Part shown: positions 4,807-50,317 of the stretch, piece by piece
Layout: every line of letters begins with the position of its first letter
How positions within the stretch are numbered: position 1 is the first letter of the stretch
NCBI GenBank assembly: GCA_964035545.1
Contig: OZ037767.1
Span: 6,898,707 to 6,962,706 of the forward strand
Length of the DNA stretch: 64,000 nt
Reading direction: 5' to 3'
Source of the DNA: Bugula neritina
Taxonomy: Eukaryota > Animalia > Bryozoa
The notes under the pieces: generated by a model
The model's database searches: none
What the model was told of the DNA's origin: nothing
Seen by the model: the letters and a program-made list of their open reading frames with translations, nothing else
Translations under genes and position numbers: made by a program

Positions 4807-5244
4807 CAGTGTGGTATATTTAAGAGTGTTGCCATTAGCAAATCTTACGGAATCATATGGGCGCCATTATGCCGAGATTGGTACCGCGAGTTTATATAAG
4901 TTATAAAGGAAAAATTTTGCCACTTTTGTTATTTTATTTTTTTTCTATTTTATGTGTACATTTTTTTAAATTTTGTTTATTGGTAAAGTTTTGAAACACA
5001 TTTTTAATGCACATAAAATTAAAAGAAAAATTAAAACTCAATCATGCACATAAATACAAAGCTATAAAGTTAAAGCTTCGCTGTGATTACAATGTGAATA
5101 TGAATTGAATAATGCTTGCAATAACCATTATACACAAAATACGTTACAGTTGCTATAAATGTAAGACTAGTTAATTGGATGCAAATAGGCACGGTAATAC
5201 TATTTAATTTATGCTATTTTTGAATTTTGTAGTAAATATTTGGC

Positions 5245-5280
<36 letters not shown>

Positions 5281-5322
5281 ATATATTATTATATATATAT
5301 AATAATATAATGTAGTGTGTTC

Positions 5323-5370
<48 letters not shown>

Positions 5371-5415
5371 GAACACACTACATTATATTATTATTATATA
5401 TATATAATAATATAT

Positions 5416-5467
<52 letters not shown>

Positions 5468-5520
5468 ATATATTATTATATATTATTATATATATAATAA
5501 TAATATAATGTAGTGTGTTC

Positions 5521-5556
<36 letters not shown>

Positions 5557-5644
5557 TTACGAGCTAGCAATTTGATTTACTTTACCTAATAAAGTAAAAA
5601 AAAAACAACAATGTTTCTCGTATACCTATTTATATATATATATA

Positions 5645-5729
<85 letters not shown>

Positions 5730-6035
5730 TATATATATATTATTATATATATATAATATATAATATTATTATATGTATATATATATATTATATATAATAT
5801 CATTATATATATATAATATATAATATTATTATATGTATATATATATATATTATATATAATGTCATTATATATATATAATGTATATAATTTAATATATAAT
5901 ATAATAATTTATTATATATGATATTATTATATATATAATATATAATATAATAATATATTTTATATATTATATATGATATTATTATATATATATAATATAT
6001 ATATAATATATATATAATATAATATATAATATAAT

Positions 6036-6101
<66 letters not shown>

Positions 6102-6402
6102 ATTATATATATAATATATAATATTATTATATGTATATATATATATTATATATAATATCATTATATATATATAATATATAATATTATTATATGTATATAT
6201 ATATATATTATATATAATATCATTATATATATATAATGTATATAATTTAATATATAATATAATAATATATTATATATGATATTATTATATATATAATATA
6301 ATATATAATATAATAATATATTTTATATATTATATATGATATTATTATATATATATAATATATATATAATATATATAATATAATATATAATATAATATTA
6401 TA

Positions 6403-6433
<31 letters not shown>

Positions 6434-7392
6434 GATATTATTATATATATATAATATATAATATAATAATGTATAATATATTATTATAATATATATATAT
6501 CATATATAATATAATATATAATATAATAATATATTATATATGATATTATATATATAATATATATATAATATAATATCTAATATAATAATATATAATATAT
6601 TATTATAATATATATATATATATATTATATATAATATTATTATACTTGTATAATATATATATAATATAATATATAATAATATATAATATATTATTATAAT
6701 ATATTTATATTATAAATAGTATAATATAATAATATATTTTATATGATATTATATATTTAATATATATTATATATATATAATATAGTATATAATATAATAA
6801 TATATTATATTATATAATATATTATTATAATATATATATTATATATAATATTATTATACTTATATAATATATATATAATATAACAATATATAATATAAAA
6901 ATATATAATATATTATTATAATATATATATATATATATATGTATGTATATATATATATATATAATACATGCCGAATATTTACTACAAATTTCAAAAATAG
7001 CATAAATTAAATAGTATTACCGTGCCTATTTGCATCCAATTTACTAGTCTTACATTTATAGCAACTGTAACGTATTTTGTGTAAAATGGTTATTGCAAGC
7101 ATTATTCAATTCATATTCACATTGTAATCACAGCGAAGCTTAAACTTTATAGCTTTGTATTTACGTGCATGATTAAGTTTTAATTTTTTTTTAAATTTTA
7201 TATGTATTGAAAATATGTTTAAAAACTTTAGCAATAAACAAAACTAAAAAAAATGCACACATAATATAAAAAAAAAAATAAAATCACAAAAGTGGCAAAA
7301 TTTTTCCTTTATAACTTATATAAACTCGCGGTACCATTGCGACATAATGATTTTTCATGGTTTAAAGTCAACACTCTTAATATACCACACTG
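4807..7392. mobile_element. Large foldback element: ~440-bp inverted arms around a ~1.7-kb (TA)n-rich core
   Basis: 4807-5250 is the diverged reverse complement of ~6965-7392 (CAGTGTGGTATAT...ATATACCACACTG); the interior is low-complexity AT repeat. Confidence 0.85.
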
Positions 7393-8548
7393 CTTATTAA
7401 TAATTACTAAGCAAAGTATTAAATAATTATGATAGCCACCTTTTCAGATGCCAAAATATTGACTTTCAGTACAATGATTAAGAAAACTCAATTATATGCA
7501 GTAGAAAGTAAAAAAAATGGGAGAATTTAAATTGAATTTAAATGACTATTAAAACTTAGTTTCATTAGCTATTTTCTTTGTAATTTTAAGCCCAACAGTC
7601 CGTAAGTTTATTAATAATCTGCAAGGCAGCCATTAATTTTATATAAGCTGTCAAGCTCAAAAATTAAAATTATTTATTTTAAATTGGCCAAATTACCATT
7701 CACTGAAAGCTTTGCTGCGTATAGTTTATAGCTGGGATTAAATTTTAGACTACGACCATCTTGTTTTCAACAGTAGTAGCTTTAATCACTCAACTAGGTG
7801 AACAAATTATACTTGTAAAGTATCCTTCACTTAAGAGGAGGCAACTTCGCGAGATCGATCTGACACTCTCATGGAAAAACGATCAATGTTATATTAACCT
7901 TTGCCCTTTATATTGGATGGCAATGAATCGGATTGTATATAATTTTCTATAATGAACAGCATTAGTTATCCAAAGGGTAAGAGGGCATAATATTATAAAC
8001 ATCATTATTTTTGATCAGTTGATCCAACTAAAGGGCCAAAGGGTTGTACACACTGCACTAGAAATAACGTTATTATTTTCCAGTTCATTGGTTGTAAAAC
8101 TAAACAGTTAATAGCTACGGTATTGATCAACTATTAGTTGATTTTATTATACTTTATTAAAATATTCTTATATTCATATAAAAGAAGGCAACTATGCAAG
8201 ATTGAACTGAAGATGTAAGTATAGCACTGGAAGACGGAAGTGGCAATTGTTTTAAAACCTATTAGTATTATATAAAAACAATATGTATTAGTGCAAAATT
8301 TGTGGAAATTTAGTTCGTAAAATTTATTAGTATTATAGTTTTAGCGGTATGGGGTGATTTCTTTATTAAGTTGAGGTTTTATTCATTTAATGTACTCATG
8401 TGGAGAGCTTCGGATAATTTTCAATGGTGGATTCCTTTAAATGACTTTTCACTAATCCATACTGCTTTTATATACATATATTTATATTTTTTCAACTCTT
8501 ATTTGTTTTTATGCAATAAATTCAGTATAATTTTTACTCATGTAATAT

Positions 8549-8853
8549 TGTGGTGGTTCGTGGAACTACCAGCAGCACAACATGTAGGGTCGCGTAATTG
8601 ACCCGGAACAATGAATAGCCAATTAGCGTAGTTGATAGTTAGCAGCAATTGTAGTTTCCCGCTGCTAACTCAGTCGAAGCTAGAGTGTGAAATAGATTAG
8701 ATGTGTAACTTGTTTGGAAATAATGTATCGTTTTTGTAATGTATAATTGTGTGTAAAATATACTCGTTCACTCGACTTATCCTGGTGCAGTTCTATAGTA
8801 AATAAATAGACTCTCTGGATAGCACATCAACCCCAAATCTGAAAACTATAACA
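8549..8853 (+). repeat. 5' LTR of Gypsy element
   Basis: TGTGGTGG...TATAACA; identical by eye to 15748-16052 except C8846 vs T16045; contains AATAAA near 8801. Confidence 0.97.
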
Positions 8854-8854
8854 G

Positions 8855-8872
8855 TGGTGGCAGCGGTGGGAT
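8855..8872 (+). promoter_or_regulatory. Primer-binding site complementary to the tRNA-Leu 3' end
   Basis: TGGTGGCAGCGGTGGGAT, 1 nt after the LTR, is the reverse complement of ATCCCACCGCTGCCA+CCA, the 3' end of metazoan tRNA-Leu(AAG/TAG). Confidence 0.88.
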
Positions 8873-8884
8873 AGTGCATCCAAG

Positions 8885-9838
8885 ATGGAGACTGAAAATG
8901 CTGGAACTCAACCACCGGCAATCGAAGGTGAGCGTAGAGACAATGCTGTAGAGACAATGCCTGTTAACCATGTAGTAGAAGAGCGAAGGGTTCCGCGAGA
9001 ACTAGCTGAGGACCGCTACAGGTTAAAGGCGCCCACCTTCACGGGTGAAGAGGAGGTGGAACAATTTATCCAAGAGTTTAGCGACGTAATGGACGTCGCT
9101 CAGTGGCCCCCTAGGGTGGCCTTGCTGAAGCTTAGAATGGCATTGATGGACAAAGCCAAGCCCTATGGGCTGGGCGTAGACATTGATAATATCTTTGCTT
9201 CTCTGCGGGCCCGCTTTGGCCTCTCTGCTACAGATGCCAGGGCCCGATTGCAGAGGTTGCGGCGTGATCCCCGCACCCCGCTGCGGGAGCATGCCGCCGC
9301 GGTCATGAAGCTGGCACAGATCGCGTACGGCGACTTGCCCCCAGTCAACCGCGAGAGGTACACCCTCGACGCTTTCATAGCATCTGTCGACGATCTGGGT
9401 CTCCACCACCAGTTTCTAGCTAGGGGAGTCACCACCGTTGAAGATGCTCTGACTGAGGGGGAAGCTTACCTCCTAGCTAATCAAATGCATAAAAGTCGCG
9501 GAAGCTCCCGCCAAGTGGAGATAGACCGCGCAGACACGGCCGCGGGACAAGGGGAGGAAACCCCCGCCGCGGCTGCCGTGTCCCAGTTGGCGACGGCATC
9601 AAAAGTCACTCAACTGACGGACATGCTAGCCAAGCTGATAGCAACACTGACACCACAAAACCCAGTGAGTACCGCCCCTGAGCCCATGCGGCCATCGGCG
9701 CCGCCACAGGGAGAAACAGTCAGTTTTTGCTGGGAGTGCGGAAATCAAGGACATTTCCGCCGTTATTGTCCCTTCCTAAACCAGGGGTTAAACTACCGCG
9801 GCCTGCAGATGTTCCCACCTTCCGCGGGCCGACGATGA
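8885..9838 (+). CDS. gag: Gag (capsid-like domain plus CCHC zinc knuckle)
   Basis: 317-aa ORF after the PBS; LKAPTFTGEEEVEQFI capsid-start motif; CWECGNQGHFRRYC knuckle. Confidence 0.93.
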   Translation: METENAGTQPPAIEGERRDNAVETMPVNHVVEERRVPRELAEDRYRLKAPTFTGEEEVEQFIQEFSDVMDVAQWPPRVALLKLRMALMDKAKPYGLGVDIDNIFASLRARFGLSATDARARLQRLRRDPRTPLREHAAAVMKLAQIAYGDLPPVNRERYTLDAFIASVDDLGLHHQFLARGVTTVEDALTEGEAYLLANQMHKSRGSSRQVEIDRADTAAGQGEETPAAAAVSQLATASKVTQLTDMLAKLIATLTPQNPVSTAPEPMRPSAPPQGETVSFCWECGNQGHFRRYCPFLNQGLNYRGLQMFPPSAGRR

Positions 9839-12800
9839 AACCTCCAGGGAAGAAGAAACGCAGGTCACCCAGACGGGTACCGCGTACTGGCAACCAACAG
9901 TGGCAACAGCCACGACGGACCAGCAAGGGGCTTCGCCCCGCGGCTGCCTTTTCTATGCCCCTTCACAACAGATTCACAGGGCTACAAGTCCAAGAATCTG
10001 GATGGGAGCACACAAAGGTAGCTGAGAATCTAGCCTCGGCACCCCCGAGGCCTACCTACCACCGCCCTAAGAGACCTCCTTCGCGACCCAAAGCGAGGGA
10101 GGTACTCCCTGCGAGAGTAAGGCCTGAAGGGAGAGTTCAGGTGCAGCCCCATGGGAACAGCTATTTCTTGCCCGGTAAACTGGAAGGCAAAGCTGTTACT
10201 TTCCTCATTGATTCGGGCTGTACCACAAACCTCTTAAGCCGCCAACTCTTCGACACCCTCAGTGCTAGGGTCAGGGGCGAGATGGAAGCATACGAAGGGG
10301 AATATGGCACCCTAGCTGACGGGTCGTGCCTTCCCTTCTATGGTATAATTGAGCTGACGGGACAAGTCCGTGATCAAACGATCCAAGAGACGTTCATCGT
10401 CAGTCAGCTCAAGGAGGATGCTATCCTCGGGATGCCGTTCCTTAAACGGCACGGATGTCACATAGATTTTAGCAGATCTGCAATGATGATGTCCGGGCGG
10501 GAACTCGCCTGCGTCGACAAGTTCGGCCGCCCTTTAGTGGGAGGTGTGCAAGTGGTACGCAACCGTATCATACCAGGCCGCTCCCGGGCTACCATTCACT
10601 GCAGGGTGAATAGTAGCCGGATCTCTGGACTCGGTGTGGTTGAAGGCGCGCACGAAAAGATCCAACTTGCCAGCAGTCTGAATCAGCTGACTGAGCAAGG
10701 GGAGATCTTAGTGCAGTGCGTCAACCCCTTTACCGAGCCTATCAAGCTCCCGGCTGGGTCGATGCTGGGCCGTTTTCACTCTGTTCAGGAGGGAGACGTA
10801 GGCCCGTCGCTGGGTGATGCAACAGAGGCACTCCCTCAGTGCCCTATTCAGGGACGAGGGGCAGTCCCAACACATCTCCGGGAGTTATACGAAACAGCCA
10901 GTGGCGGCTGCGCGAGTAACAGAGAACGCCAAGCTATGGCTAAGTTACTACGCGACTACGGTGATGTGTTCAGCAGCGGAGAGCATGACGTGGGACTGAC
11001 TGGAATTGTCAGACACGAAATACCGCTGACTGCAGGGACAGTCCCTGTCCGGCAGCCCACACGCAGGCTGGGGCCGGAGAAAGAGAAGGAGGTTAGCCGA
11101 CAAGTACGGGATCTTTTGGACCGGGGACTGATAGAGCCCGCCCACAGTGCGTGGAGCTCGCCAGTCGTACTGGTCCGGAAGAAAGACGGCAGTTGGCGGT
11201 TCTGTGTGGACTACCGCAAACTCAATAGCGTAATCATACAGGACGCCTACCCTCTACCTCGTATTGACGAGTCATTGGACGCCCTAGCCGGCAGCAAGTA
11301 CTTCAGTACGTTAGACTTGTTAAGCGGCTATTGGCAGGTTCCTCTGAGTCCCGACGCCCAAGAGAAAGCGGCGTTTATCACAAGGGACGGTTTGTGGAAG
11401 TGGAAGGTGCTGCCCTTCGGGTTAACCTCCGCCCCAGCCACCTTCCAGAGGCTGATGGAACAAGTCCTTAGCGGACTCCATTGGAAGACACTGCTGGTCT
11501 ACCTCGATGATGTCATCGTAATCTCTCCAGACTTCGAGACACATGTCAGTCGTCTGCAGGAGGTTTTCGAGAGACTCCGAGGTGCCGGTCTTAAGCTCAA
11601 ACCTTCCAAGTGCGCTCTATTGCAGCCGGAGGTCAAGTACCTGGGGCACGTTGTCGGTCGAAACGGCGTGGCAACGGATCCCGAAAAGGTACGGGCAGTA
11701 GAAGACTGGGTCACCCCCCAAGACTTGACCGGACTCCGGGCTTTCTTGGGGCTGGTAGGGTATTACAGGCAATACATACCAGACTTTGCGGGCATAGCCC
11801 AGCCGTTAAACCGGCTCACCGCAAAGGGAGTGACGTGGCAGTGGACTCCAGTCGAACAAGAAGCGTTCGACCGCCTCAAGGGCTGCCTACTAACGGCGCC
11901 CATCTTGGCCTACCCAGACCCCACTCTGGAGTACATCCTAGACACAGACGCCAGTGACCAGAATGTTGGCGCTGTGCTGTCACAAGTGCAGGAAGGCCGA
12001 GAGGTAGTAGTAGCCTACTACAGCAAGTCTCTCTCACCCGCTGAACGAAATTACTGCACTACCCGCAAGGAGCTGCTGGCAGTAATCAAGTCAGTGAAGC
12101 ACTTCAGACCATACCTATATGGCAGGAAGTTCCGGCTGCGTACGGATCATGCCTCGCTGATCTGGTTGTGCAGGAGAGCAGAGCCCTCTAGTCAGGTCGC
12201 CCGGTGGCTCGAAATCCTAGCTGAATTCTCATACCGGATCGAACATCGACCGGGCAAGAGACACAGCAATGCGGATGGGTTGAGTCGCCGACCTGACAGA
12301 GGTTGCAAACAGTGTCTCAACATCGAGAGGAGGGATGGAGGTCCCCCGCGATGCGAGTTGGAGATGCTGGCTCACCACGGAGCACCGTTTGACTGGGACC
12401 AAGGTCAACTCAGACAAAGAGTTGATGAGTCCCCGGAGGATGTACAAAACCTCCGCGCCAACCCTGTACTGGCCGGTAATGTTCGAGAGCTGAAGAAGCT
12501 CCAAGAAGAGCTGCCTGGAGTCGTGGCAGACATATACCGGGCCAAAAGGGAAGGGCGACGACCCAGCGAGGAACGCATACGACAGGGATGCGCCGAGTTC
12601 CGGCTATACTGTCAGCGTTGGGACTCGCTGCGGATCGGGCAGGATGGGTTACTAACCATCTCTCTAGCTGCCAGCGGCAGACACCCGGAAAGGAAGAGGG
12701 TAGTCTGTCCCACGGCCATCCGCCGTGAGTTGATTTGGGATACTCACAAACAGGCCCACGCAGGGGTCAAGAGAGTGATATCCAAATTACGACTCCGGTG

Positions 12801-14358
12801 GTATTGGCCGCAAATGGAGCGTGACGTCCGGCTCAGAGTCAAACAGTGTGAGATCTGCCAGGCCAGTAAGCATAGCCGCCCCCCTGGTGAAGCAGGACGG
12901 CGGAGGCTATACGCTGGTAGACCCTGGCAAGTAGTCGCTGTAGACCTGGTCGGACCCATGCCCCTGACCCCCAGAGGCAATAATTGGATCCTAGTACTAA
13001 CCGACCACTTTACTAGGTGGGCGGATGCTCTGGCTATCCCAGATGCATCAGCCCCAACAGTGGCCAGGGCACTAGACCAACATGTATTCTGTTATTTTGG
13101 GCTCCCCGAACAGATACACTCTGATCAAGGCGCTCAATTCCAGTCTCAACTGATGAGCGACCTTTGCCGCCTCTGGGGAGTAAATCAGAGCAGGACCACC
13201 CCCTACCACCCTCAAGGTAACGGGGTGGTGGAGCGCAACAACCGGATGCTAGGTGATGCGCTCCGGAGTCTCCTCCTTGGACGAGGTCAAGAGGAATGGG
13301 ATACGGTGTTGCCGCAAGTCATGCGTGCATACCGTAGCACCCCACACACCAGTACTGGTGAGACCCCAAACCTCTTGATGCTCGGGAGAGAGACTCGTGT
13401 CCCCGACCATCTCACCTATCACGTTCCAGAGCAAGATAACTCAGTCCACGAGTATGCCAGTGAACTAGTGGAACGGATGAAGGCCGCACACGATATACTG
13501 CGCCAACAGCAGTGGAAGGTGCGGCACGAAGATTCCGATGAACCACCCCTCTATCAAAGGGGAGATAAGGTGTGGATGGTCAATTACCGTAGGCGCCGCG
13601 GACAGGCTGATAAGCTGAAGCCTAAGTTCGTAGGCCCCTACGTGGTTGTCGAGGCTATGCCCAATCATACGTACAAGATTGAGCGCTCAGGACAGGTATC
13701 TATCCAGAATGAGTCTCGCTTGAAACCGTATTGGGCTAGCCCCGGCGGAGTGGGAGAAGCCCCCCCGTTGTTAGAGCCCAGGAGGCAGACAACAACGCGC
13801 GGGCGACGGCGGCATGGACCTGAATACGAAGTGGTCATACCGCGGGAAGAAAACTTGGTGAGAGAGGAGCGGCAGCTTCTACCAACAGAAGCGTGTCCGC
13901 CACCGCCAAGTCTAATTCCATCACTTCCAGAAACCGAGCCGGTTCCGGAAGTGCAAACCCCCACGGAGGGAGGGGCTCCATCCGGAGAACAAGAAGAGGT
14001 GACCGCTAACGGTGAAGTAGAGACGCCATTAGAGGCCCCTACTAACGAACCGGCAAGCGTGTCACCCCCCCTAGAAAGGGGACAGCGTACGAGGCAACCC
14101 CCCGCATACTTGAAGGACTTCATATGCGACTGCGTTAAAAGCGGCGTGTATGAAAGTCTAGGGGAAAACCGTACGAGAAAAGTATCGAGCAAATGTGGGA
14201 GTTGTCAACACCACGGAAATATCAACTTTTGTATCGGCGGAGATAGAAACAAAATTCATCCGCCGGGTGCACAAAGTCTTAATCACCCACCCCAACCACG
14301 TTGCTCGATCTTTTCATACGCTGATGCAGTCAAGAGTAGACGTGTTCCTAAGCAGTAG
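9727..14358 (+). CDS. pol: Pol polyprotein (aspartic protease, RT, RNase H, integrase), probably expressed as Gag-Pol by -1 frameshift
   Basis: LIDSGC protease; WRFCVDYRKLN, LPFGL and YLDD RT motifs; DTDAS RNase H; H-H-C-C plus VAVDL/HSDQG/VVER integrase. The ORF-track start is a non-ATG codon overlapping gag in the -1 frame. Confidence 0.97.
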   Translation: MLGVRKSRTFPPLLSLPKPGVKLPRPADVPTFRGPTMKPPGKKKRRSPRRVPRTGNQQWQQPRRTSKGLRPAAAFSMPLHNRFTGLQVQESGWEHTKVAENLASAPPRPTYHRPKRPPSRPKAREVLPARVRPEGRVQVQPHGNSYFLPGKLEGKAVTFLIDSGCTTNLLSRQLFDTLSARVRGEMEAYEGEYGTLADGSCLPFYGIIELTGQVRDQTIQETFIVSQLKEDAILGMPFLKRHGCHIDFSRSAMMMSGRELACVDKFGRPLVGGVQVVRNRIIPGRSRATIHCRVNSSRISGLGVVEGAHEKIQLASSLNQLTEQGEILVQCVNPFTEPIKLPAGSMLGRFHSVQEGDVGPSLGDATEALPQCPIQGRGAVPTHLRELYETASGGCASNRERQAMAKLLRDYGDVFSSGEHDVGLTGIVRHEIPLTAGTVPVRQPTRRLGPEKEKEVSRQVRDLLDRGLIEPAHSAWSSPVVLVRKKDGSWRFCVDYRKLNSVIIQDAYPLPRIDESLDALAGSKYFSTLDLLSGYWQVPLSPDAQEKAAFITRDGLWKWKVLPFGLTSAPATFQRLMEQVLSGLHWKTLLVYLDDVIVISPDFETHVSRLQEVFERLRGAGLKLKPSKCALLQPEVKYLGHVVGRNGVATDPEKVRAVEDWVTPQDLTGLRAFLGLVGYYRQYIPDFAGIAQPLNRLTAKGVTWQWTPVEQEAFDRLKGCLLTAPILAYPDPTLEYILDTDASDQNVGAVLSQVQEGREVVVAYYSKSLSPAERNYCTTRKELLAVIKSVKHFRPYLYGRKFRLRTDHASLIWLCRRAEPSSQVARWLEILAEFSYRIEHRPGKRHSNADGLSRRPDRGCKQCLNIERRDGGPPRCELEMLAHHGAPFDWDQGQLRQRVDESPEDVQNLRANPVLAGNVRELKKLQEELPGVVADIYRAKREGRRPSEERIRQGCAEFRLYCQRWDSLRIGQDGLLTISLAASGRHPERKRVVCPTAIRRELIWDTHKQAHAGVKRVISKLRLRWYWPQMERDVRLRVKQCEICQASKHSRPPGEAGRRRLYAGRPWQVVAVDLVGPMPLTPRGNNWILVLTDHFTRWADALAIPDASAPTVARALDQHVFCYFGLPEQIHSDQGAQFQSQLMSDLCRLWGVNQSRTTPYHPQGNGVVERNNRMLGDALRSLLLGRGQEEWDTVLPQVMRAYRSTPHTSTGETPNLLMLGRETRVPDHLTYHVPEQDNSVHEYASELVERMKAAHDILRQQQWKVRHEDSDEPPLYQRGDKVWMVNYRRRRGQADKLKPKFVGPYVVVEAMPNHTYKIERSGQVSIQNESRLKPYWASPGGVGEAPPLLEPRRQTTTRGRRRHGPEYEVVIPREENLVREERQLLPTEACPPPPSLIPSLPETEPVPEVQTPTEGGAPSGEQEEVTANGEVETPLEAPTNEPASVSPPLERGQRTRQPPAYLKDFICDCVKSGVYESLGENRTRKVSSKCGSCQHHGNINFCIGGDRNKIHPPGAQSLNHPPQPRCSIFSYADAVKSRRVPKQ
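9787..9831 (+). promoter_or_regulatory. Putative -1 ribosomal frameshift signal
   Basis: G_TTA_AAC (9787-9793) in gag frame, a 5-nt spacer, then an 8-bp stem CGGCCTGC (9799-9806) / GCGGGCCG (9824-9831, one G-U pair). Confidence 0.7.
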
Positions 14359-14382
14359 TTCAAACCATTTCACACATTCAGT

Positions 14383-15460
14383 ATGTCTTACGACAACAGA
14401 TCGTGGGGTGAGTTAACTATATCTTAATACGAAACTAGATTGCATCGCTCAGCTCTGACTCACTGAGTCAATCGAGCTGGAGATAGGTTAGTGAAATACC
14501 GTAGTAAGAACTCAGTTTGACTTAGAGATTTTTATAATCTCATTGCAATACGTGTTCTATCTGACTATTCACTACCATAAATCTCTACGAGGTAACTGAA
14601 TTAGGAGTTGCCAAGCTATTCAAGCTGACAACACGGCAGTGTACTGTATTAACACTGTTGAAACTTTTTCAGATTACACTCGACCCGCTACAACCAGGGT
14701 ACGGGATAGAACACTTCCCGCTCCGTATCCGGAGGAGTATGCCAGTGGTGACCGGCCTGAGCCACTACGCCGCCGTTGGCGGTGGGTGTCTCCACAAACA
14801 GAGGAAGAAATAGAGACGGCCTGGGGGTCCAGAGGACGGACGAGATGCCAGATCTGTGGTGAAGATTGCGCCTCTCACCGCTCCCTTAAACTACACGTCA
14901 ATGCTCATCTCCTACTGACATTCTGCCCCTGCGGGTACAATGATGTGTATCCCTACCCCGTCACCAGACACAGAGCGGCGGGCTGTTTCCCTGGAGAAAA
15001 CTACGTGGTCGACGCTAAGCTATACCTGGAGTTCCTCACACTTATACGACCTCTGGTGAAGAAGGCCATGCTGTTAGCCGTTCTGTCCTCGGGGTTCCAA
15101 CGTGTGTTAGACAACGCCCGCCAACAATCCCCGTTGGTGTCTGACCGCCCTCAAATTACATACACCCCCGAGGAAATTACATATCCAGAAGAAGGAGAGA
15201 TCTCCCCTACCCCGACGAAGAGACGAACCAGGTCCCCCAGTCCACCCTTGCGCCGCAGACGGACACCGTCCCCAGACCCAGTACGCCTAGCCACAGTAGA
15301 AGAACGCCTTCTGCGATTACAAGAAGAATTCACCCAGCTGGCACCAGATCTACTTAACACTACAACAGGACTCTTCCAGCTGAAGGGATCCGTATGCCGT
15401 ATGAAACGGAAACTGCGTACATGCCAAGCCAAGCACCGGCGTGCCCAACAAGGACTCTAG
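14383..15460 (+). CDS. Third Gypsy ORF, predicted two-exon gene (14383-14407 + 14673-15460, ~270 aa): C2H2-like zinc finger(s), RS/SP basic tract, C-terminal coiled coil
   Basis: ATG TCT TAC GAC AAC AGA TCG TGG G|GTGAGT donor joins in phase to the TTTTTCAG|AT acceptor, giving MSYDNRSWDYTRP...; CQICGEDCASHRSLKLHVNAH; RRTRSPSPPLRRRRTPSP; heptad-like LATVEERLLRLQEEFTQL. Confidence 0.72.
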
Positions 15461-15747
15461 TTGACTACCCGGAGTACTCCAACTCCGCCTCTTGGGAGAA
15501 GCCAAGAGGTCATGTAAATGTTTGACTGCTTAACAGGTTATCCCCTGTCTAACACCACAGCTAGCTAGTATTCCTCGTCTATCTACAGCTGGCCAATTGT
15601 ATGCAACGGATCGTTACGATGACTCTGTATTATTATTATGTCTCTTCCTGTATATTATGTGTTATTTTTGTCCACTGATGTATGTAGTTATTAATGAATG
15701 TTTTTTTTATATATATCAGAAAGATGGCTTTCTGCTGGTGGGGGCGG

Positions 15748-16052
15748 TGTGGTGGTTCGTGGAACTACCAGCAGCACAACATGTAGGGTCGCGTAATTGA
15801 CCCGGAACAATGAATAGCCAATTAGCGTAGTTGATAGTTAGCAGCAATTGTAGTTTCCCGCTGCTAACTCAGTCGAAGCTAGAGTGTGAAATAGATTAGA
15901 TGTGTAACTTGTTTGGAAATAATGTATCGTTTTTGTAATGTATAATTGTGTGTAAAATATACTCGTTCACTCGACTTATCCTGGTGCAGTTCTATAGTAA
16001 ATAAATAGACTCTCTGGATAGCACATCAACCCCAAATCTGAAAATTATAACA
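15748..16052 (+). repeat. 3' LTR of Gypsy element
   Basis: Direct copy of 8549-8853, immediately preceded by the G-rich tract GGTGGGGGCGG (15737-15747, putative PPT). Confidence 0.97.
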
Positions 16053-19000
16053 ATATAAAAAAACAAGATTATCTCCCTTATAAATTTATATAATTTTGAA
16101 ATAACTGCCACTCTTTATACTTTATGTCATGCATAGAGTTTAACGCAACGTCATAACATTTGAATTTTCATCATTCATTGTTACTCTGAAAATGGGGGCA
16201 GTGGTGCTCGAAATATTAGTCAATTACTTTGCTTAATAAAGTAGGTAGTAAAATCACAATTTTTTTGGTATACTTATTCATATATACATAACTATAAGTA
16301 GGCAACAGTGGTGTTTGAAAGATACTATAAGTTTAAGTTATTTACCTTAATCTAAATCTTTAACGATTAATTTATAGGCCTATTCAGTATTCATGTGCGT
16401 AGATAGTTGCAAAAAAGTTGGTTGACATTCGTATTACGTAAAATTTCATTCGCAAATAGAATTTATATTTTACTTACTTAGAAAAGATTAATAGTTGTAC
16501 AGTCACCGGTCTCGATCATCAGCTGATAGAAACTGGTACCAGAGACTTTACCAGGATGTACAGTTGTACAGATGTGAGGTGAGGTTCTGCAGTCACAGAC
16601 TTTTTCATCTTTAATTTTACTTTTTCTTTTGAATATTTGACTATTGGCAGCAGAGGTGCAGAGACAGTATCCTTGCATGTGTATACTTTAAACTCTACAT
16701 GTGTAATCATCATATTAATCTACTTTCTATGAAACCTTTTCCTATTAGCCTGGGATCTAGTTTTCTTCTTTCTTTGAAGTTTGTCTAATTCCTTCCTGAC
16801 AAAAGTTGTTTTGCTGAAACTTAATTGGAAGGCTTGGCTATTAGTTTTTTCTGCTTGTATATTTCAACCCTGATAGTTTTTGCTGCATGTCTGGTGTTGT
16901 GAGACCCTCAACTTAGACATTTTTTTTTATTGTTTGAACATTTTTATTTTAACTCAAAACATATGTTACATGAAATGTATTTTTAAAAATTGCATTTAAG
17001 CAATTTAAAAACTGTTTGTGTGTTTCCATTCTGAGTAGGTGTTGAAAATGCTTGATTGCCAGTCTCGTGTGTCTCAGCTCCTTACCATCTACGTCTTGCA
17101 TGTTGCTTTATTGTCATAAACAAAAGCCATATTTAAATATTTTATTTTCTTAAGAAATTTATATTAACTACACTTGCATAGTTATAATTGCTTAAAAACC
17201 AGTTTTTTATAGTGTGTAGGAGTTTATGTTTATGTGAAATATACAAATTTAATGTTACTCGCTGAAGCTGAAGTAAAAAACTAAAAACTACACTATTACT
17301 ATATTAGATTAACAATTATCAATTTTGCTTTAATTACTACAAACAATTAGAAACTATATTATAGGTATTGTAATTTTACAATACATCCCAGCATCATGAG
17401 CTAGGTGACAAAAACCAGGAAATAATTCTTATCTATTCCTATTGAAAGGGTCGCTAAGTTGAGGCAACTGCTCAATTCCACTTCTAGCTTTGTTGTTTTT
17501 GCTTTAGACTTTAAAGTACATTTGACTCACTGAGACTTTTAGTGGCTCTTAACTTGTTCTGAAAATAACATATATGATTATTACTATAGACAAGTCAAAC
17601 ACTATACTATAAGGTAGAGCAGGCAAAGAAAATAATTTTATTTTATTTTCAAATTTGATCCCTCTTTTAAACATGATTTTAGTAGTAAAAAATCTACAGG
17701 TATATTGTACAGTATATGCTGTTAAGTTACTTCTGCTTTCATGCATGCATAATAGTATATTAGTGCCACAGAAGCACACAAAAGGCCAACATTTTCAAAA
17801 ATGTTAGTGTGATTTTTTTTAAAAAGCTGTATATCTGTAGCAACCAACTACATAACTATAAGTTTATAACTAGAATCTAATTGAATAAAGCCCAAAAAAG
17901 TTTAGAGTTTTTAAAATAGTTCAATAAAACTGCATGGTTATAAGAATATTGTCAAAACTCTACATGTGTAATCATCATATTTTCCCTTGTATTCTTTTAC
18001 TTTATGTATATATATAATGATGAAATAAACAAACAAACAAACAAACATAGATCACTCCATTCCATTTTACTCCAGAATGTTTTAGTTTATTGAGTTTGCA
18101 TGTTCTTTCTATTGGTTTAATATGTCTGGTTAGTTTTTAGTCTGCTCTTGTAGAGCTTATCTCTGTATGAACAGCTTTACCCTGGGCCGCTCTTTGTTAA
18201 AAAAAGTCATCTAGATTAGTTGAGTCTGAATTGGTAGCACATGTAGGGTTTGGTTATCAGCTGATTCTGCTAAATGCCTGTCACTCTTGAAGTTTACACT
18301 ATCTAATGTTTTGTATTCATTCATGTTTTGAACTGTTGAGTAGGCTGGGCTTGTAGCTAAAATTAACACATTACTTTCGTGGAGCATATCTTTGTATATA
18401 GAGCGGCTCACTTTGTGCAGTTCTTTGTTGTAAAAACTCATCAAAGTTGTAGTGTTGTAAATCGTTCTCTGTAGAGTTGGCAGAAGACTAGCTGATCTTA
18501 CTCTTCTAGGTATTTGGAATTGGGCATCATCTGGTGTTTTCAGATCATTATGGTTTTGGACTGCATGTTGAGTAGTCTGAGCTCATGGCTAAAATTAAAC
18601 ACGCTACTTTAATTCTCAACTTTCTTTTAATTTTTTCATTCAAAACAAAACAGATGTTTTAAAGAGTTAAAATAATACTACAAATATGCCATGTTGCAAG
18701 TTTCTCTTCTGCATAAAATGTTTGCATGTTCTTTGATTATGACAATAGGTTTACACTTATGAAGCTTGTTTTTGTATAGAGTCTAGAGATTTATACACAT
18801 ACACTAGCTGTTCCAGCTTCTGCTGAAGAATTAAATTTAAGTTTATTGTAATCTAGCTTTGCTTTTTGTTTTTGTCTTTTCTCTTTTTTTCCCTTTGAAA
18901 GTGCTTTGCTGGTTGAGAAAATTTAATGTTTTTTTCCCATTTATTTTAGTTATTTTCTGAGAGGTCTCTTCTTGTTAGTTAAACCTGAATCAGTGAAACT

Positions 19001-22935: not shown

Positions 22936-25900
22936 TCAGTCCTTCACACAGGTATTCTCACATTCTTCCTTTGTCCTGTGAAATCAACACATACGATGAC
23001 TCATTGCTGATATAATTAGCAACAATTAAATGACAGGACCAAGCTATAATTGCGTAGGAATAAAACACTTACTATTAATTATATCATGTATGATGAGAAA
23101 TTGAAAAATAGTATACTGTTGCTTTGGGGTATTGATCAAATGTAAGATTCAATAAAATGGTAGCCATGCATATTGTTCAGCTTAGACACTGGTGGCTATT
23201 GAATTAGTCAGAATGGCTATTAAATATTTTTATTATTTGATTATACCTATCTCGGTTTTTGATCAATTTAGAGATAATGCATAACAATGATTTTTTATCA
23301 GACAGCGTTTTTTTAGTTAAAACATTTGATTCATTTACTATAATAACTGGTCAACAAGTTATTTTCAGCTCCTTGCAAAATTTACAACATGGCTAACAAA
23401 ATTGTGTTACTTTTAAACTTAGACTTTGAATCAGTTTGTCCTTGCAAATTAGACAACCCATCTGAATGTTACAAACCAGGACTGAAAGAGCTGACTTACT
23501 CAAAGCGGTTCTCATTTCCTGCACAACCAGTATAAACAAAGGGTTTACATGTTCTCTGGTGCCTGTCATAGTACCATCTATGAAGGGTGTAGATACAGAG
23601 TCCCACCCGTACTTCTTGCTGTTCACAAGCTAGTCTAACCAGATTCTCACATCTGCTTTCACAATCCATTAGTCGGCTGTATAAAAAAATAGTTATCACT
23701 ATGAGACACTCTAAAAAATGGTTTCTGCATTTCCAAACAATCAACTTGTCAAGGCAAGTAAATAACATTACTAGTGACTGACTGCATGTATATTATATTA
23801 CTAGTATAGTATATGTATGTTATATTAATAGTATATGTATGTTATATTACTGGAACACTTATATTATATAAGGTAGGTGCAGTAACGGAGAAATTAAGAA
23901 ACGCCTGTGTACTATAGATTAGAACTGTAGCTTAAGAAGTTATATTCATGCCAGAACTTCCATTGAACTATTAGTTATAGCTTCAGTTCAGTGAGAAGTT
24001 CAATCTGGTCTGCAAACCAAAATTTAAAAATGAAATTAAAGAACTTATAGGTTATCTCAATTTCTCCACCACTGCTCATAAAGGTATTATATTGTTAGTA
24101 ATGCATTTAGACTCCATCCAGTAATCAGAGGCAAAGAGAAATTAGCAAGTGTCAATATGAATTACACAGCATGACTACAAAATTGCAGGTTAGCCTAGGG
24201 CCACACTGTGCGTATTTTCGCATGCGAAAATTGAAATCACAAGTAGCAAAGGTGTCCACTGTGCGCGTTGAGAAAACCTTCGCACTTGTCGCTCTGCATT
24301 CTCAACGCAAGTGCGAATCGTCTCTGTCGTCGTCACCTAATTGGCTGATAGTTATTCAGCGAGCCCAACTTCTTTATTTTAGTGCTACATTCCAGTAAAT
24401 TGCGTTTTATTGAAAGCGAGTGCGATTTAAAAATGAAAGCTTTATTTATCACGCATCACTGACGCTACAGTGGACACCTTTGCTACTTGTGGTTTCAATT
24501 TTCGCATGCGAAAATACGCACCGTGTGGCCCTAGGCTTAAACTGAATAATTCAAGACTGCAGAATAATACAATCTTGTTGTACCAGTGCATATAGATTAT
24601 CAAGAAAGCATAAAACTCCTAAAACCAACATCAAACAACATGTAATATATTAAAGAGTATACTTTAATATAATCTTAAGCACTTTGCATTGATAAACTAA
24701 CTTATTACCAATTTCTTTCTATATAAGAACTTTACGTTGAAAGAAATTTAAATAAAAAGTATATTGATATAGTACTGGATCAGTAGAAAAAAGGTCAGTG
24801 GTTGAATTCCAGCAAAGTTCATTGTCGGTACTATAGGAAGGGTATTTAGTCAAAATTGTTCCACAATAGTAAATAAGCCCATGGCCTGCTCTATAAGGGG
24901 TTCTCACAGGGAGCCTATACATAAGTTTTTATGTTAAATTAAACTTACATAAACTTATTAGCGTTCCCATGAAACCCTCGATACTGAAAACTTTCACAGT
25001 ACCCAGTCCTTGGATTGAAGAAATATCTGGTGAATGATCCTGATCCAGTGCCTTCAACTTTTGGCATTGCGCAGATATTCGTGGTGGCATCACATGTGTA
25101 GTGACAATCTTCCTCCGTTCTTAAAACAGAGAAATGTAAGTTTTTTTTAAAATTAATCGAACTCACTCCAGCAAACATATAAATTTCAAACTAAATTAAA
25201 TTGAATTAAAATGTTGCTAATTTTAAAATTGTATATTTTTAGACTAAGAGAAAGCAATATGTAGCCTATTGCTTTAATCAATTACTGGTTATTTAATTAT
25301 TGATTATTTATTGAAATATACAAATATAATTTACTTCTTAAAGTAGAAAATGATCTGTTGCAATGTAATTTTGCATACTATATTTTGTAGCAGGGCAGTT
25401 TTATCAATGAGTAAATAACTTCTAATGCTTGAAATTAAGTTACATGGAGCTTATTATTGAAAATGCTGAAGTATTACAACTGATAGACCTATACATTTAC
25501 TTTATATTCAATTTATGCAGCCTGAAAGGGTTAAAATTGCTACTAAAATTATTGAATCCATGCTTCATCTATACAAAGCAGAGACTTACTATTACTTAAC
25601 GTATTATATTCTGTTGACAAGCTTAACACCCTTTGTTTGACAGAAGTGATTATTACTTTTATTGACAATCTAGTTAGAGGTTGTTGAAAGTTATAAACAC
25701 TAGGAGAGAGCTTGTATACTATGGATATGTATAAGTTAGGTACTTTTGAAGGGCTGGGTTACAGTCTCAGTTAGTTACTAAACTTTGATTATCTTACACC
25801 TGAGATTAAAGTTCCAATTGGTGTACCACTTGACAAAAAACCTTGTGTGTTATTCTGTTTTTATGAGAATTTCAACTTACACCCCAGAGCCAACATTTAT

Positions 25901-45567: not shown

Positions 45568-46344
45568 TTAAACGTCATAACTTGGAAATGTTGGTAAAGA
45601 TTCAGTAGATTCGGTTATATCTCCATCATTCGTTGATAAAACTAATTTATTACCAACTGCTCCTTGTAATTTAGGAATAGCGTAATTATTTATATTATTT
45701 ATTGTAATAAGATCTGAAATATTTATATCCGTTTCTACAATATTACCATCACTCGAAAGCATTAATAATTTACCTCCGATTATTGGTTGTATTTTATTCA
45801 TAGCGAAATTATTTATATTACTAGTCGTAATAATATCGCTAACGCTTAAACTACTATCCACAACATTACCCGAAGTAGTTGAAACGGTTAATTTTTCATT
45901 CGCGGGTTGTATTTTATTTATAGCGAAATTATTTATATTACTAGTCGTAACAATATCGCTAACGCTTAAATTACTATCTACAATATTACCCGTATTAGTT
46001 GATACGGTTAATTTTTCACTCGGGTCTCGTATAAGAGGTACGGCGTAATTAGATACATTAGTTTTTGTAACGACATCATCAACTTTTAAATCGCTATCTA
46101 TAACGCGTCCATCGTCGGTTGATATAGTTAATTGATTAATAGGGTTTTGTATTTTAGGCATACTCGTATCGTCAACGTATTTTTTTGTAGCCGCGTCTTG
46201 ATCGTCAGCCGGATTAATAACTCTAGATATTTTATTTTCACCCATATCTAATGTACCCGTAAGAGTACTACTACCGTTTATTAAAACGAATTTTTTTGTA
46301 TCTATTTTTGTTTTTTCGCTTCCTCCGAATTTATAAACACTCAT
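45568..46344 (-). CDS. Fibre-like repeat protein
   Basis: LTGTLDMGENKISRVINPADDQDAATKKYVD (phage tail-fibre/adhesin-stalk-like motif) followed by ~4.5 repeats of 40-41 aa. Confidence 0.65.
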   Translation of the reverse strand: MSVYKFGGSEKTKIDTKKFVLINGSSTLTGTLDMGENKISRVINPADDQDAATKKYVDDTSMPKIQNPINQLTISTDDGRVIDSDLKVDDVVTKTNVSNYAVPLIRDPSEKLTVSTNTGNIVDSNLSVSDIVTTSNINNFAINKIQPANEKLTVSTTSGNVVDSSLSVSDIITTSNINNFAMNKIQPIIGGKLLMLSSDGNIVETDINISDLITINNINNYAIPKLQGAVGNKLVLSTNDGDITESTESLPTFPSYDV

Positions 46345-46829
46345 TTATAATTGTAGTAAAGTTTTAATGACACTAATTCAAACGGTAAAGCTATAGGCGC
46401 GTTGTCATTAACCGTAATGTCATTGGGTTTACGACTAGTATAATCGTTTGAGCAGTGTAATACTAATCCAATATTTTTATCGCTCTCAATATATTCCAAC
46501 ATAGGTATTTTTACGCGCGCAACGCCTCCTTGAATTATATATTCTTTAGTATTGTGTTCGAGAGGGTTATTAACATTACCGATGATTAAAGTTAAATTTT
46601 TATCTTTCCAATATAAAGAATTATCATTATTAGCTGGAAGATGTTGAAATTCTAATAAAGCGTATTTTAGTTCTATTGGTTTATCCACTATATATCCCAA
46701 TAATATTCCTATATTAATTGTTGTGCTAAAAGATTGTATAAAAACATTATTATTTTTAGTTACGACTCTTTCGATATAATTTTCTTTTTTAGCTTTCGCT
46801 AATGATTTTCCAAATTTATAAACACTCAT
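46341..46829 (-). CDS. Hypothetical protein, possible second spike/fibre-head protein
   Basis: 162 aa, beta-rich looking; the N-terminal MSVYKFG is identical to the neighbouring fibre-like ORF. Confidence 0.55.
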   Translation of the reverse strand: MSVYKFGKSLAKAKKENYIERVVTKNNNVFIQSFSTTINIGILLGYIVDKPIELKYALLEFQHLPANNDNSLYWKDKNLTLIIGNVNNPLEHNTKEYIIQGGVARVKIPMLEYIESDKNIGLVLHCSNDYTSRKPNDITVNDNAPIALPFELVSLKLYYNYK

Positions 46830-46832
46830 TTA

Positions 46833-47591
46833 TTACGGTATATAAAATTCGTCTAACCCGTGTCTATATCTTCCATTATTTTTTGAGGAAGAAAGATCTA
46901 AAGTAATAAAGCCGTGAGGTTTTTGCCATCCTTTATAACAAAAGTTTTTAAATTCGTTTAACGTTAAATCTCCGTTTACGTGATCTTGATATATATGATT
47001 TAAATTTTTTCCGTCTTGAGGAAATAAGTAAATAAAATTAGCGTTTTCTCGAATAGTATTTCTAGGCAGCTTAAAATAATTTTGCGACAAATAAAAACAA
47101 TCGACGTTATTATGTCGTCCTCTTACGTAATAACTTTCGCAAGTTTTTTGTTTTTCCAACATTAAATCATCGAATATTATTAAATTTTTATTACTAGCGT
47201 CTAATTCGCTAGGATCATAAACGTCGTCACTAGATTCGATAAATTCGGCGTCTATATTACCGTTACCCCTACTATTTTTTAAAACACGATTTACGTTTAT
47301 ACCCGAATTTATTATCGCGTCACTATTTTTAAAAAAATTTAAAATTTCTTCTTTAGTTAATTTACGTTCGAAAGCCTTCCTCATATTTATATATTCGGGT
47401 TGAGAAAGACTTTTACCGTAAATCATAAGTTTATCGTAATCGAGCCAATTAGGTTGTAATAGTAAGTTACAAAGTAACGTAGTTTTACCGCATCCAGACT
47501 TTCCAACGATAAGACCTCTTATGCTTTTAGGAAGTAAAGGATTATTATTACGATTAATTTCGTTTTTCCACGAAAGATTTTCTATTTCCAT
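46833..47591 (-). CDS. Genome-packaging ATPase (A32-like, FtsK/HerA superfamily)
   Basis: Walker A GKSGCGKT, Walker B LIIFDD, RGRH arginine motif, LSQNY, IRENAN. Confidence 0.95.
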   Translation of the reverse strand: MEIENLSWKNEINRNNNPLLPKSIRGLIVGKSGCGKTTLLCNLLLQPNWLDYDKLMIYGKSLSQPEYINMRKAFERKLTKEEILNFFKNSDAIINSGINVNRVLKNSRGNGNIDAEFIESSDDVYDPSELDASNKNLIIFDDLMLEKQKTCESYYVRGRHNNVDCFYLSQNYFKLPRNTIRENANFIYLFPQDGKNLNHIYQDHVNGDLTLNEFKNFCYKGWQKPHGFITLDLSSSKNNGRYRHGLDEFYIP

Positions 47592-47603
47592 TTATTATAA
47601 TAA

Positions 47604-48968
47604 ATGTATTGTTGTAAGTGTAAAACTAAAACGAAAACTCTTAATTACGAAAAGAGAGTAAGTAAAAATAATAGACTAATGGGTTACGGTAATTGCGGTC
47701 AATGCGGATGTAAAAAGACTACATTTGTTGGGTCGGGTTTAGCTAATAATTTAATAAATAATTTACCCTTTGAATTGCATTATCCGGGTCACAATTTTTT
47801 AGGACCGGGTACTAAATTAAATAAGCGTTTAAATGACGACATGACTCCTAAAGAATGGAGTAAACCGGTAGATCGAGACGACGCTATAGCCATGAGACAT
47901 GACGTATGTTACGCGCTTAATAAAGATACTAAAACTAGAAACGAAATATGTGATAAAAATATGCTAGACGAACTGAAAGCTATACCTAATCCTACACCCG
48001 CTGAACAGCGACACAGTCGTTTCGCCTCGGCAATAATAGGTGCGAAAAAACGCTTAGGATGGGGATGGACGAACGAGTTAGCCGAAGAACTGCATAAACC
48101 GGTACAAAAAAAATTTCGTAAAAGACGAGTTTGGGTATCGGGTATCGATAATATTTGGGCGGCTGACTTGGTTGATATGACTGAATTCGCTAAATTTAAT
48201 AACGGTTATAAATATTTATTAACGGTAATAGACGTGTTTTCAAAATACGGTTGGATAATACCTTTAAAAAATAAGACTGGAAAAGCCGTTGCTTTAGCTT
48301 TAAAAACGATTTTAACTCGTCGTAAGCCACAACATTTATGGGTTGACAAGGGTAAAGAATTTTATAATAAAGACGTAAAGTCTTTAATAGACTTATATTC
48401 TACGGAAAATGAAGAAAAGTCTAGCGTAGTAGAGAGGTGGAATAGAACTATGAAAGAGCGAATGTTTAAATATTTTTCGGCTAATAATACTTATAAATAT
48501 ATAGACGTACTAAAAGATTTAGTAAAACGGTATAACGAGACTAAACATTCGTCTATTGGAATGACACCGATTGAAGCTAGTGATCTTTCTAATGAAAACA
48601 AAGTACGCGTGAAATTATATCCAAACTTACCAGCGCTTTCTAAACCTAAATTCGCTATAGGTGATAGAGTACGTATACCGCGTAAAAAACGAACGTTTGA
48701 AAAAGGTTATACCGTTAGATGGACGGAGGAAGTGTTTACTATAAGTAAAATATTATATACTAATCTGACTACTTATAAATTAACTGACTCGGGTGGAGAA
48801 GAAATTCAAGGATCTTTTTACGAACAGGAATTACAAAAGACGAGTCAAGAAATGTATAGAATAGAGCGCGTAATTAAAAAGAAAGGTAAAAAGGCTTTAG
48901 TAAAATGGTTAGGTTATCCCGATTCTCAAAACTCTTGGGTAAATTTAAACGTTTTAGAACGATTATAG
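47604..48968 (+). CDS. Zn-ribbon + parvovirus-type phospholipase A2 + retroviral-like integrase + chromodomain fusion
   Basis: CCKC...CGQC; HNFLGPG and DAIAMRHDVCY (PLA2 Ca-loop and HDxxY); WAADL, WVDKGKEF, VVERWNRT (DDE); YRIERVIKK...VKWLGYPDSQNSWV chromodomain. Confidence 0.92.
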   Translation: MYCCKCKTKTKTLNYEKRVSKNNRLMGYGNCGQCGCKKTTFVGSGLANNLINNLPFELHYPGHNFLGPGTKLNKRLNDDMTPKEWSKPVDRDDAIAMRHDVCYALNKDTKTRNEICDKNMLDELKAIPNPTPAEQRHSRFASAIIGAKKRLGWGWTNELAEELHKPVQKKFRKRRVWVSGIDNIWAADLVDMTEFAKFNNGYKYLLTVIDVFSKYGWIIPLKNKTGKAVALALKTILTRRKPQHLWVDKGKEFYNKDVKSLIDLYSTENEEKSSVVERWNRTMKERMFKYFSANNTYKYIDVLKDLVKRYNETKHSSIGMTPIEASDLSNENKVRVKLYPNLPALSKPKFAIGDRVRIPRKKRTFEKGYTVRWTEEVFTISKILYTNLTTYKLTDSGGEEIQGSFYEQELQKTSQEMYRIERVIKKKGKKALVKWLGYPDSQNSWVNLNVLERL

Positions 48969-49160
48969 TGGACACAAATGTAGACACAAATGTGGACACT
49001 AGACACAAAAGTGGACACAAACACATTTGTGTCCATAAAAAGTAGACACAAATGTGTTTGTGTCCATAAAAAGTAGACACAAAAGTGGACACAAATGTGT
49101 TTGTGTCCATAAAAAGTAGACACAAAAGTGGACACAAATTAAACGTAAAGTGGACACAAA
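48968..49160. repeat. Intergenic array of GT(G/A)GACACAAA units in both orientations
   Basis: About 11 forward and 3 reverse (TTTGTGTCCA) copies forming repeated imperfect palindromes. Confidence 0.92.
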
Positions 49161-49174
49161 TTAATATATAATAA

Positions 49175-49981
49175 ATGAGTTACTTAAAGATTCACGACCC
49201 TATAAAAAGAGATAAAACCGTACAAGATTTTATTTCTCGAAAGAATAAATTAAAAGAAAATTTTAAACGAGAACGCGAGCGAGAATTAAATGCCGCGATG
49301 GCTCAAGAAAAATATTTTGAACCCGTAATTGCTTCGCAAGCTCAAACGACTGACGCGTTAAAACAATTGCTTACATTACCCAATTATAATGTTCAACCGG
49401 CTATAACGGATGGAGTTATAAATTTAGACGAATTTACTCAAAACGCTTTAGCTGGCTTAGAACCCGGCGCTTATAACGTAAAGTGGGATGGTAATAGACA
49501 CGTTATTGGTACAAAACCTATAAGCTTTAACGATGGTAAAATAATTTTTGAAAATGAAGAATATCCGGCGACTAGAGGACTTTTAAGTCTTTTAACGCGT
49601 AAAACGCCTATAGGATACGATGATAATGATTTAGCGAATTACGCTAATATACTCGATAATAGCGGCGCTATATATCAAAGTAAACACGGTCCTATAGATA
49701 AAAATAGTGAAAAATGGAAAAATATTGTTAGACCTATTTGGGAACAATTATATCCTCAGAGAGCGAAACTCGCCGATAGTAAAAAAGCTAAAAGGCAAGT
49801 CGGTGATGGAGTAGTATATTTATCGTCTGATCCTAACGCTTTAGTAGAACGACTCGAACTTTTAATTTCTAGCGCTAAAGCCGGAAATACGGGGGTACGA
49901 AACGAAATTGTGTCTATATTAGACGAATTACTTAGAATGAAAATTATTACTCGTGACTATTATAAAAGTATTCTCGTATAA
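49175..49981 (+). CDS. Conserved Polinton/adintovirus virion-associated protein of unknown function
   Basis: 268 aa; the C-terminal GDGVVYLSSDPNALVERLELL...KAGNTG.RNEI..ILDEL motif is one I recognise from Polinton proteins. Confidence 0.7.
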   Translation: MSYLKIHDPIKRDKTVQDFISRKNKLKENFKRERERELNAAMAQEKYFEPVIASQAQTTDALKQLLTLPNYNVQPAITDGVINLDEFTQNALAGLEPGAYNVKWDGNRHVIGTKPISFNDGKIIFENEEYPATRGLLSLLTRKTPIGYDDNDLANYANILDNSGAIYQSKHGPIDKNSEKWKNIVRPIWEQLYPQRAKLADSKKAKRQVGDGVVYLSSDPNALVERLELLISSAKAGNTGVRNEIVSILDELLRMKIITRDYYKSILV

Positions 49982-49984
49982 TAA

Positions 49985-50296: not shown

Positions 50297-50317
50297 GAAA
50301 TTATTTTACTATAATAA

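Follow-up and report, generated by a model that had tools for sequence, protein, structure and literature searches.

The available text of PMC10309623 describes CERV, a protein of the C. elegans Ty3/Gypsy element Cer1, as having an N-terminus in common with Gag, as being made from a spliced RNA and as being needed for export of the genomic RNA. Five exons encode the 517 residues of CERV, which comprise a G-protein-like domain and possibly a C4 loop, and the same text gives no homologues outside nematodes. In the endogenous retroviruses of the insect idefix subclade, the env splice joins a donor inside gag to an acceptor downstream of pol, according to the accessible part of PMC12992720. Furthermore, the available sections on bdelloid rotifer LTR elements (PMC5408684) and on the additional ORFs of plant elements (PMC7264820) report conserved non-Env ORFs in the env slot, which are presumed to be auxiliary.

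The window, meaning the whole stretch of 64,000 nucleotides of Bugula neritina DNA that was analysed, holds an intact Gypsy element at 8549-16052 with LTRs, a primer-binding site (PBS), a polypurine tract (PPT), a target duplication, and open gag and pol (Table 1). The pol domains follow the Ty3/Gypsy order of protease, RT, RNase H and integrase. The two LTRs of 305 nt differ by 1 mismatch and are flanked by an ATAT duplication, which, together with the open gag and pol, agrees with the original description of a nearly mutation-free element. Judged from its sequence, ORF3 is a conserved third gene of this Gypsy retrotransposon family. The original prediction of a non-Env third gene that needs splicing is borne out by a frame that is selected, conserved, and equipped with zinc fingers and a coiled coil.

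ORF3 resembles CERV in its env position, and a spliced N-terminus shared with Gag is suggested for it, from a single relative (P0020) and from traces of the donor in gag relatives, as in the available account of CERV (PMC10309623). Compared by description only, the ORF3 protein differs from CERV in having a C2H2/C2HC pair, about 276 residues and two exons. The env splice of the idefix subclade, in the accessible part of PMC12992720, has the same donor-in-gag and acceptor-after-pol layout, but its product is an F-type fusion glycoprotein with a signal peptide and a TM helix, both of which the ORF3 protein lacks. The rotifer and plant extra ORFs encode, in the sections available (PMC5408684, PMC7264820), GDSL, DEDDy, TM or unknown proteins unlike the ORF3 fingers, and neither 'zinc' nor 'C2H2' is found in the available text of the rotifer LTR-element paper (PMC5408684). 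Neither zinc fingers nor ORF3 appear in the main text of a survey of env-carrying metazoan elements (PMC13524379), and an annelid LTR survey makes no mention of zinc (PMC8220671). Literature searches, with Repbase, subscription journals and supplements outside their scope, returned no description of the ORF3 family. The arrangement is familiar from nematodes, rotifers and plants, all of which have elements with non-Env third ORFs, but the ORF3 protein family is new.

Table 1. Features of the Gypsy element and of ORF3 (window positions; a slash marks a splice boundary)
Feature	Position	Strand	Remarks
5' LTR, TG...CA	8549..8853	+	305 nt; TATA-like TATAA 8742, AATAAA 8801; ATAT at 8545-8548 adjoins
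Primer-binding site	8855..8872	+	presumably tRNA-Leu
gag start = probable coding exon 1 of ORF3 mRNA	8885..8927	+	43 nt, 14 codons + 1; strong Kozak context
gag, CCHC knuckle	8885..9838	+	weak Pfam match, E 0.15
Probable main intron, GT-AG	8928..14672	+	5,745 nt; donor AAG/GTGAGC; takes out gag-pol
pol frame (protease, RT, RNase H, integrase)	9682..14358	+	-1 relative to gag
Mini-exon, ATG to donor (putative)	14383..14407	+	possible acceptor AG 14380-14381 before ATG
Possible alternative intron	14408..14672	+	265 nt; P0025, a relative, echoes the donor position
Branch-point-like TTAAC and acceptor TTTTTCAG	14649..14672	+	within predicted stable RNA fold
ORF3 main exon to stop	14673..15460	+	
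Compact Trp-helix / two-finger / helical domain	14747..15124	+	residues ~25-150, numbered from 14675
Finger 1, C2H2: C58-x2-C61-x12-H74-x3-H78	14846..14908	+	
Finger 2, C2HC: C84-x-C86-x12-H99-x4-C104	14924..14986	+	
Arg/Ser-Pro tract, subfamily-specific	15218..15274	+	
Coiled coil and basic tail	15287..15448	+	12/13 a/d positions hydrophobic
G-rich polypurine-tract position	15737..15747	+	
3' LTR	15748..16052	+	AATAAA 16000; ATAT 16053-16056 directly after

Other mobile DNA was found in the window. A Polinton/adintovirus-like gene block at 45568-57029 contains an A32-like ATPase (46833-47591, minus strand), an integrase with PLA2-like and chromo domains (47604-48968), a double jelly-roll capsid (50318-51592), and a 918-residue ORF (54273-57029) that appears by eye to be a protein-primed polymerase and for which Pfam gave Rho_N and Endonuclease_7 only. 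A BEL/Pao polyprotein at 58444-64000, with 1852 open codons, runs past the window end. At 4905-7309, inverted repeats of 346 nt (90%) flank a 1.7-kb block of nearly pure A+T simple repeats in a MITE- or foldback-like manner, while a MITE-like structure at 24192-24537 has 71-nt inverted arms, 97% complementary, with 204 nt between them.

As the original prediction held, the 273-codon frame of ORF3 opens with GTG at 14639. Its first in-frame ATG is codon 156 of the stop-to-stop frame. The start codon likely comes from gag, whose first 14 codons would be spliced to the acceptor at 14672. Among the 325 GT sites scored from 8760 to 14672, the donor at 8928 ranks first; it lies 43 nt after the gag ATG, in phase 1 and in frame with the acceptor, and the join gives a product of 276 residues. 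A set-up of this kind was matched in 16 of 5000 shuffles, scored with a donor matrix. The gag ATG stands in a strong context, and no ATG occurs between the TATA-like sequence at 8742 and the gag start. Proteins of relatives point to the same junction. Residues 1-14 of P0020 are identical to the N-terminus of the gag record P0243; beyond residue 14 the gag protein continues with Gly-Glu and P0020 with Asp-His-Thr-Arg, the start of the ORF3 exon, in which Asp is the residue expected from a phase-1 join. When 193 ORF3 relatives were compared with 131 gag records, P0020 was the sole full-score match to a gag N-terminus. Of the 47 of 120 gag relatives with the N-terminus present, 42 retain Glu14, 41 retain Gly15 and all 47 retain Glu16; the residues on either side vary, and 18 have a shorter in-frame leader. 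A trace of the acceptor was observed as well: Ser or Leu precedes Asp or Gly in 20 of the 21 relatives with a locatable motif, as expected from read-through of YAG/RN, and the 21st is P0020. Alignments of ORF3 to metagenome, viral and genome contigs gave no confirmed locus of a relative, viral contigs yielded no hit to a pol query, and the 2 and 13 loci picked out by PBS patterns had no gag or ORF3 matches, so that the conservation of the splice sites rests on protein read-through.

The main intron is thus likely, on this comparison of proteins, the 5,745-nt gag-pol intron at 8928-14672, removed by an env-type subgenomic splice, and not the intron of 265 nt. Against this stands that a single protein record carries the junction, that of the relative P0020, which is 53% identical and whose contig measures 5.3 kb. 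The same arrangement could also result from deletion at the shared AG. No reads span this junction or that of the mini-exon: the 8927-14673 joint is absent among the 15 of 63 joints listed, and the RNA run is without cover at 14352-14810, the region of the mini-exon and the acceptor, the 3 joints listed alongside lying elsewhere. The contig that encodes P0020 is 5,320 nt, longer than the spliced RNA of about 1.5 kb that would be expected, and P0020 hints at an integrated copy of spliced RNA. The gag relatives P0204, P0215 and P0257 have read-through N-termini that suggest a PBS core either tandemly repeated or shared. A stable fold was predicted at 14575-14700 (z -3.8, 0 of 200 shuffles), holding the branch point and the acceptor, which could damp splicing. 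The strongest local RNA fold of the element is at 10620-10739 (z -6.2, 30 shuffles), between the protease and RT coding regions.

A protein of 276 residues is predicted, in which a rigid C2H2/C2HC domain is followed by a flexible linker and then by the coiled coil with its basic tail. Modelling with an alignment of 130 rows gave a compact C2H2 and C2HC pair with pLDDT 89 and pTM 0.82; this alignment was used instead of the 36 close rows, which reached pLDDT 52. The model runs from a Trp-containing lead-in and helix through finger 1, finger 2 and a Val-Asp strand to three helices. Finger 1 has the classical C2H2 pattern in a beta-hairpin/helix, and across the 130 rows C84 is invariant, while H78, C86, G87 and H99 are kept in at least 90%. 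The C2H2-like finger and the second Cys/His cluster noticed at the outset are therefore both real, the second being C2HC, and the coiled coil is real by its a/d positions. The Pfam scan of the window's ORF3 protein gave no family above cut-off; zf-C2H2_4 matched 18 of 56 family members weakly (best E 1e-4), and the family profile matches classical C2H2 fingers, with E 7.7e-8 to HIC2 for finger 1. Foldseek of the domain against PDB and BFVD returned no match at E 0.001, and VIA-align no Z of at least 5, neither of which implies a novel fold. The two-finger core aligns weakly to tandem pairs of Kaiso/ZBTB33, SALL4, ZBTB38 and CTCF (Z 3.2-3.7, rmsd 2.6-3.0) over 50-57 of 146 residues, about one third of the domain. 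The likeness lies in the finger 1 pattern and the rough two-finger arrangement, but Z stays below 4, the second finger is C-x-C...H...C, and the Trp helix and C-terminal helices are unmatched.

The two fingers, which are the only ones, are joined by a hydrophobic linker of five residues that is not TGEKP-like, unlike a tandem DNA-reading C2H2 array with its TGEKP-type linkers and at least three fingers. The helix of finger 1 has Arg residues common to distant families. Helix position 6 is taken by a hydrophobic residue. The shared Arg residues and the hydrophobic linker would fit a general nucleic-acid surface better than base reading specific to each family. The best 19-residue hydropathy of the protein is 1.5, and a value above 1.8 occurs in 4 of 72 relatives. 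By hydropathy and Pfam scans there is neither a signal peptide nor a TM helix, in agreement with the original prediction, and an Env identity was rejected on these grounds. The basic tail is present in 53 of 55 close relatives. The Arg/Ser-Pro tract, initially likened to SRPK-phosphorylated domains such as the hepadnavirus core tail, occurs in 3 of 66 close relatives, with shorter basic runs in 14 of the 22 distant relatives, in one case within the tail. It is no family feature, so that an SR or hepadnavirus-core-like RS domain family was discarded. A leucine-rich export-signal pattern was found inside the folded domain only, most relatives have a Pro/Thr/acidic linker, and a homodimer prediction, run without use of the alignment, scored 0.02, which speaks neither for nor against a dimer.

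The function placed first, with a little under an even chance, is that ORF3 is expressed from a gag-spliced subgenomic RNA and that its product, likely nuclear, enables export of the intron-retaining genomic RNA in a CERV- or Rev-like manner. With a strong donor so soon after the gag ATG, a 5.7-kb intron has to stay in the genomic RNA. Cer1 faces the same difficulty and overcomes it through CERV, and an export factor is favoured for this reason. The original proposal that the genomic RNA must keep an intron is supported in this form, but not with the 265-nt intron as the main one, the gag-pol intron being likelier. In the proposed mechanism, the strong donor would make spliced RNA the default early product, and the protein would reach the nucleus via its basic patch, bind the element's RNA, self-associate through the coiled coil and shift output toward unspliced gag-pol RNA. 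The mini-exon would have a minor, alternative use, either as a brake through a frame shift or as a second start. The proposed logic is like that of HIV Rev and HTLV Rex, in which a spliced early product frees unspliced RNA, with a basic patch and self-association. Rev has no zinc finger, and the ORF3 protein is without a clear export signal. Against an export role, the finger sequence and fold matches are all to classical C2H2 proteins, mostly DNA binders, which favours a role in transcription, and the export-signal pattern is confined to the folded domain. No RNA response element was singled out either; a sliding fold scan of the element gave no single RRE-like standout, and many windows fold well.

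It is possible, if somewhat unlikely, that the product of the same spliced gene binds DNA and regulates the LTR of its own element, either as a transactivator or as an anti-silencing factor, acting as a coiled-coil dimer. The HIC2 match of finger 1, the alignment of the core to the tandem pairs of Kaiso, SALL4, ZBTB38 and CTCF, and the Pro/Thr/acidic linker speak for such a regulator, and the plant extra ORFs reportedly include a nuclear one. The structural matches, however, are weak and limited to a third of the domain, and base-reading C2H2 arrays differ in linker type, in finger number and in helix position 6, where ORF3 has its hydrophobic linker, two fingers and a hydrophobic residue. A cofactor of the particle or of integration, that is, a nucleic-acid chaperone riding with Gag or an integration tether, is improbable. 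It would draw on the first 14 residues likely common to Gag, on the basic tail and coiled coil, and on P0175 and P0080, two distant relatives in which a pol-tail motif precedes the domain in frame. However, the stretch in common with gag is short and, the donor apart, variable, and read-through by the gene caller in broken copies may account for the in-frame pol tails.

Returning to the export reading and its gag-derived start, the competing source of the ATG is the mini-exon, on which the original prediction had relied. Its ATG at 14383, donor G/GTGAGT at 14408, acceptor TTTTTCAG ending at 14672, phase 1 and open product of 270 codons are all present; the signals and the phase stand, but the supply of the ATG is better explained by the gag donor at 8928 and the P0020 junction. 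That an internal promoter or upstream acceptor makes the mini-exon at 14383-14407 the main source of the ATG, via the 265-nt intron, is given a slight chance. Donor 14408 ranks second of the 325 GT sites and its phase fits; shuffling the region 5000 times and scoring with the donor matrix gave an equally strong donor and an open ATG in phase 52 times, which puts the set-up above chance, though not strongly. P0025 starts with Val-Ser 88 codons before the acceptor Asp, the same distance of 265 nt, but this one matching donor is weak evidence since both P0025 and P0027 show moderate conservation throughout the spacer. On the other side, the N-termini of 188 relatives' records include no mini-exon-like peptide joined to ORF3, and one relative has the gag junction. 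TTCAGT as an Inr-like start is weak because TCAGT occurs 13 times in the element and TATA is missing before 14378; an Inr at 14378 would also leave 3 nt upstream of the ATG. Bounded by the AG at 14381, the mini-exon is 26 nt, and its inclusion after the gag donor shifts the frame to a stop 46 codons into the main exon. Its ATG is in the pol frame, 24 nt past the pol stop (14359-14424); read-through of that stop into the mini-exon found no support. The mini-exon may be a real alternative.

Relatives of the ORF3 protein numbered 72 at 44-98% identity in a protein search and 101 in the cluster library. In P0080 and P0175 the pol-tail motif lies in frame upstream of the domain (E 2e-4 and 0.22), so other subfamilies probably also sit behind pol. 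Among copies, 19 of the 25 listed ORF3 variants are silent against about 26-33% expected (p ~1e-5 or lower), with a rough pN/pS of 0.11-0.15 from the same 25. These come from run X2 (25 of 27 listed ORF3 rows, 2 X1-only rows being dropped), in which the 40 of 78 rows listed are biased to common variants. Of the 7 listed indels, none falls in ORF3 and 2 fall in the 265-nt intron. The RNA run, which like the other run consists of contigs, made one contact with ORF3, at 14821-15039 with 7 differences, which is not proof of transcription. A quick tree of 112 of the 130 rows and 119 columns, which gives no direction of transfer, grouped the window protein with P0020 in a 45-row set (support 99) and placed three bryozoan-linked rows far off with weak support. 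The named ORF3 relatives are all bryozoan, from 3 of 30 clusters looked up. The finger domain is present twice in the distant P0079, P0112 and P0130, and P0079, annotated as a gene in Watersipora, has isoforms and a C-terminus that resembles a coiled coil. That ORF3 is host sequence captured recently and carried along neutrally, as the related domains of annotated genes in two bryozoans, Watersipora subatra and Bugula neritina, might suggest, is scarcely credible and largely refuted, as those domains are about 30% identical and far off in the tree, while the frame is kept in all 72 relatives, silent variants are in excess and no listed indel touches ORF3.

On a wider view, held as doubtful though possible, an old and widespread invertebrate Gypsy lineage would consist of complex retroelements in which the env splice was re-used for a Rev-like switch, built on an undescribed double-zinc-finger domain and evolved separately from Rev and CERV; the spliced RNA, with its PBS and PPT retained, would be reverse-transcribed into short non-autonomous copies, as P0020 may be. 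The means by which unspliced RNA exits the nucleus have been shown for few LTR retrotransposons, with CERV the one protein example found in these literature searches. The ORF3 family is a second candidate, apparently unrelated to CERV, that comes with precisely placed splice sites, numerous natural variants and a domain model of high confidence. The env slot and an env-type splice can apparently hold a nuclear-type protein, and the zinc-finger domain common to annotated bryozoan genes points to possible capture or domestication.
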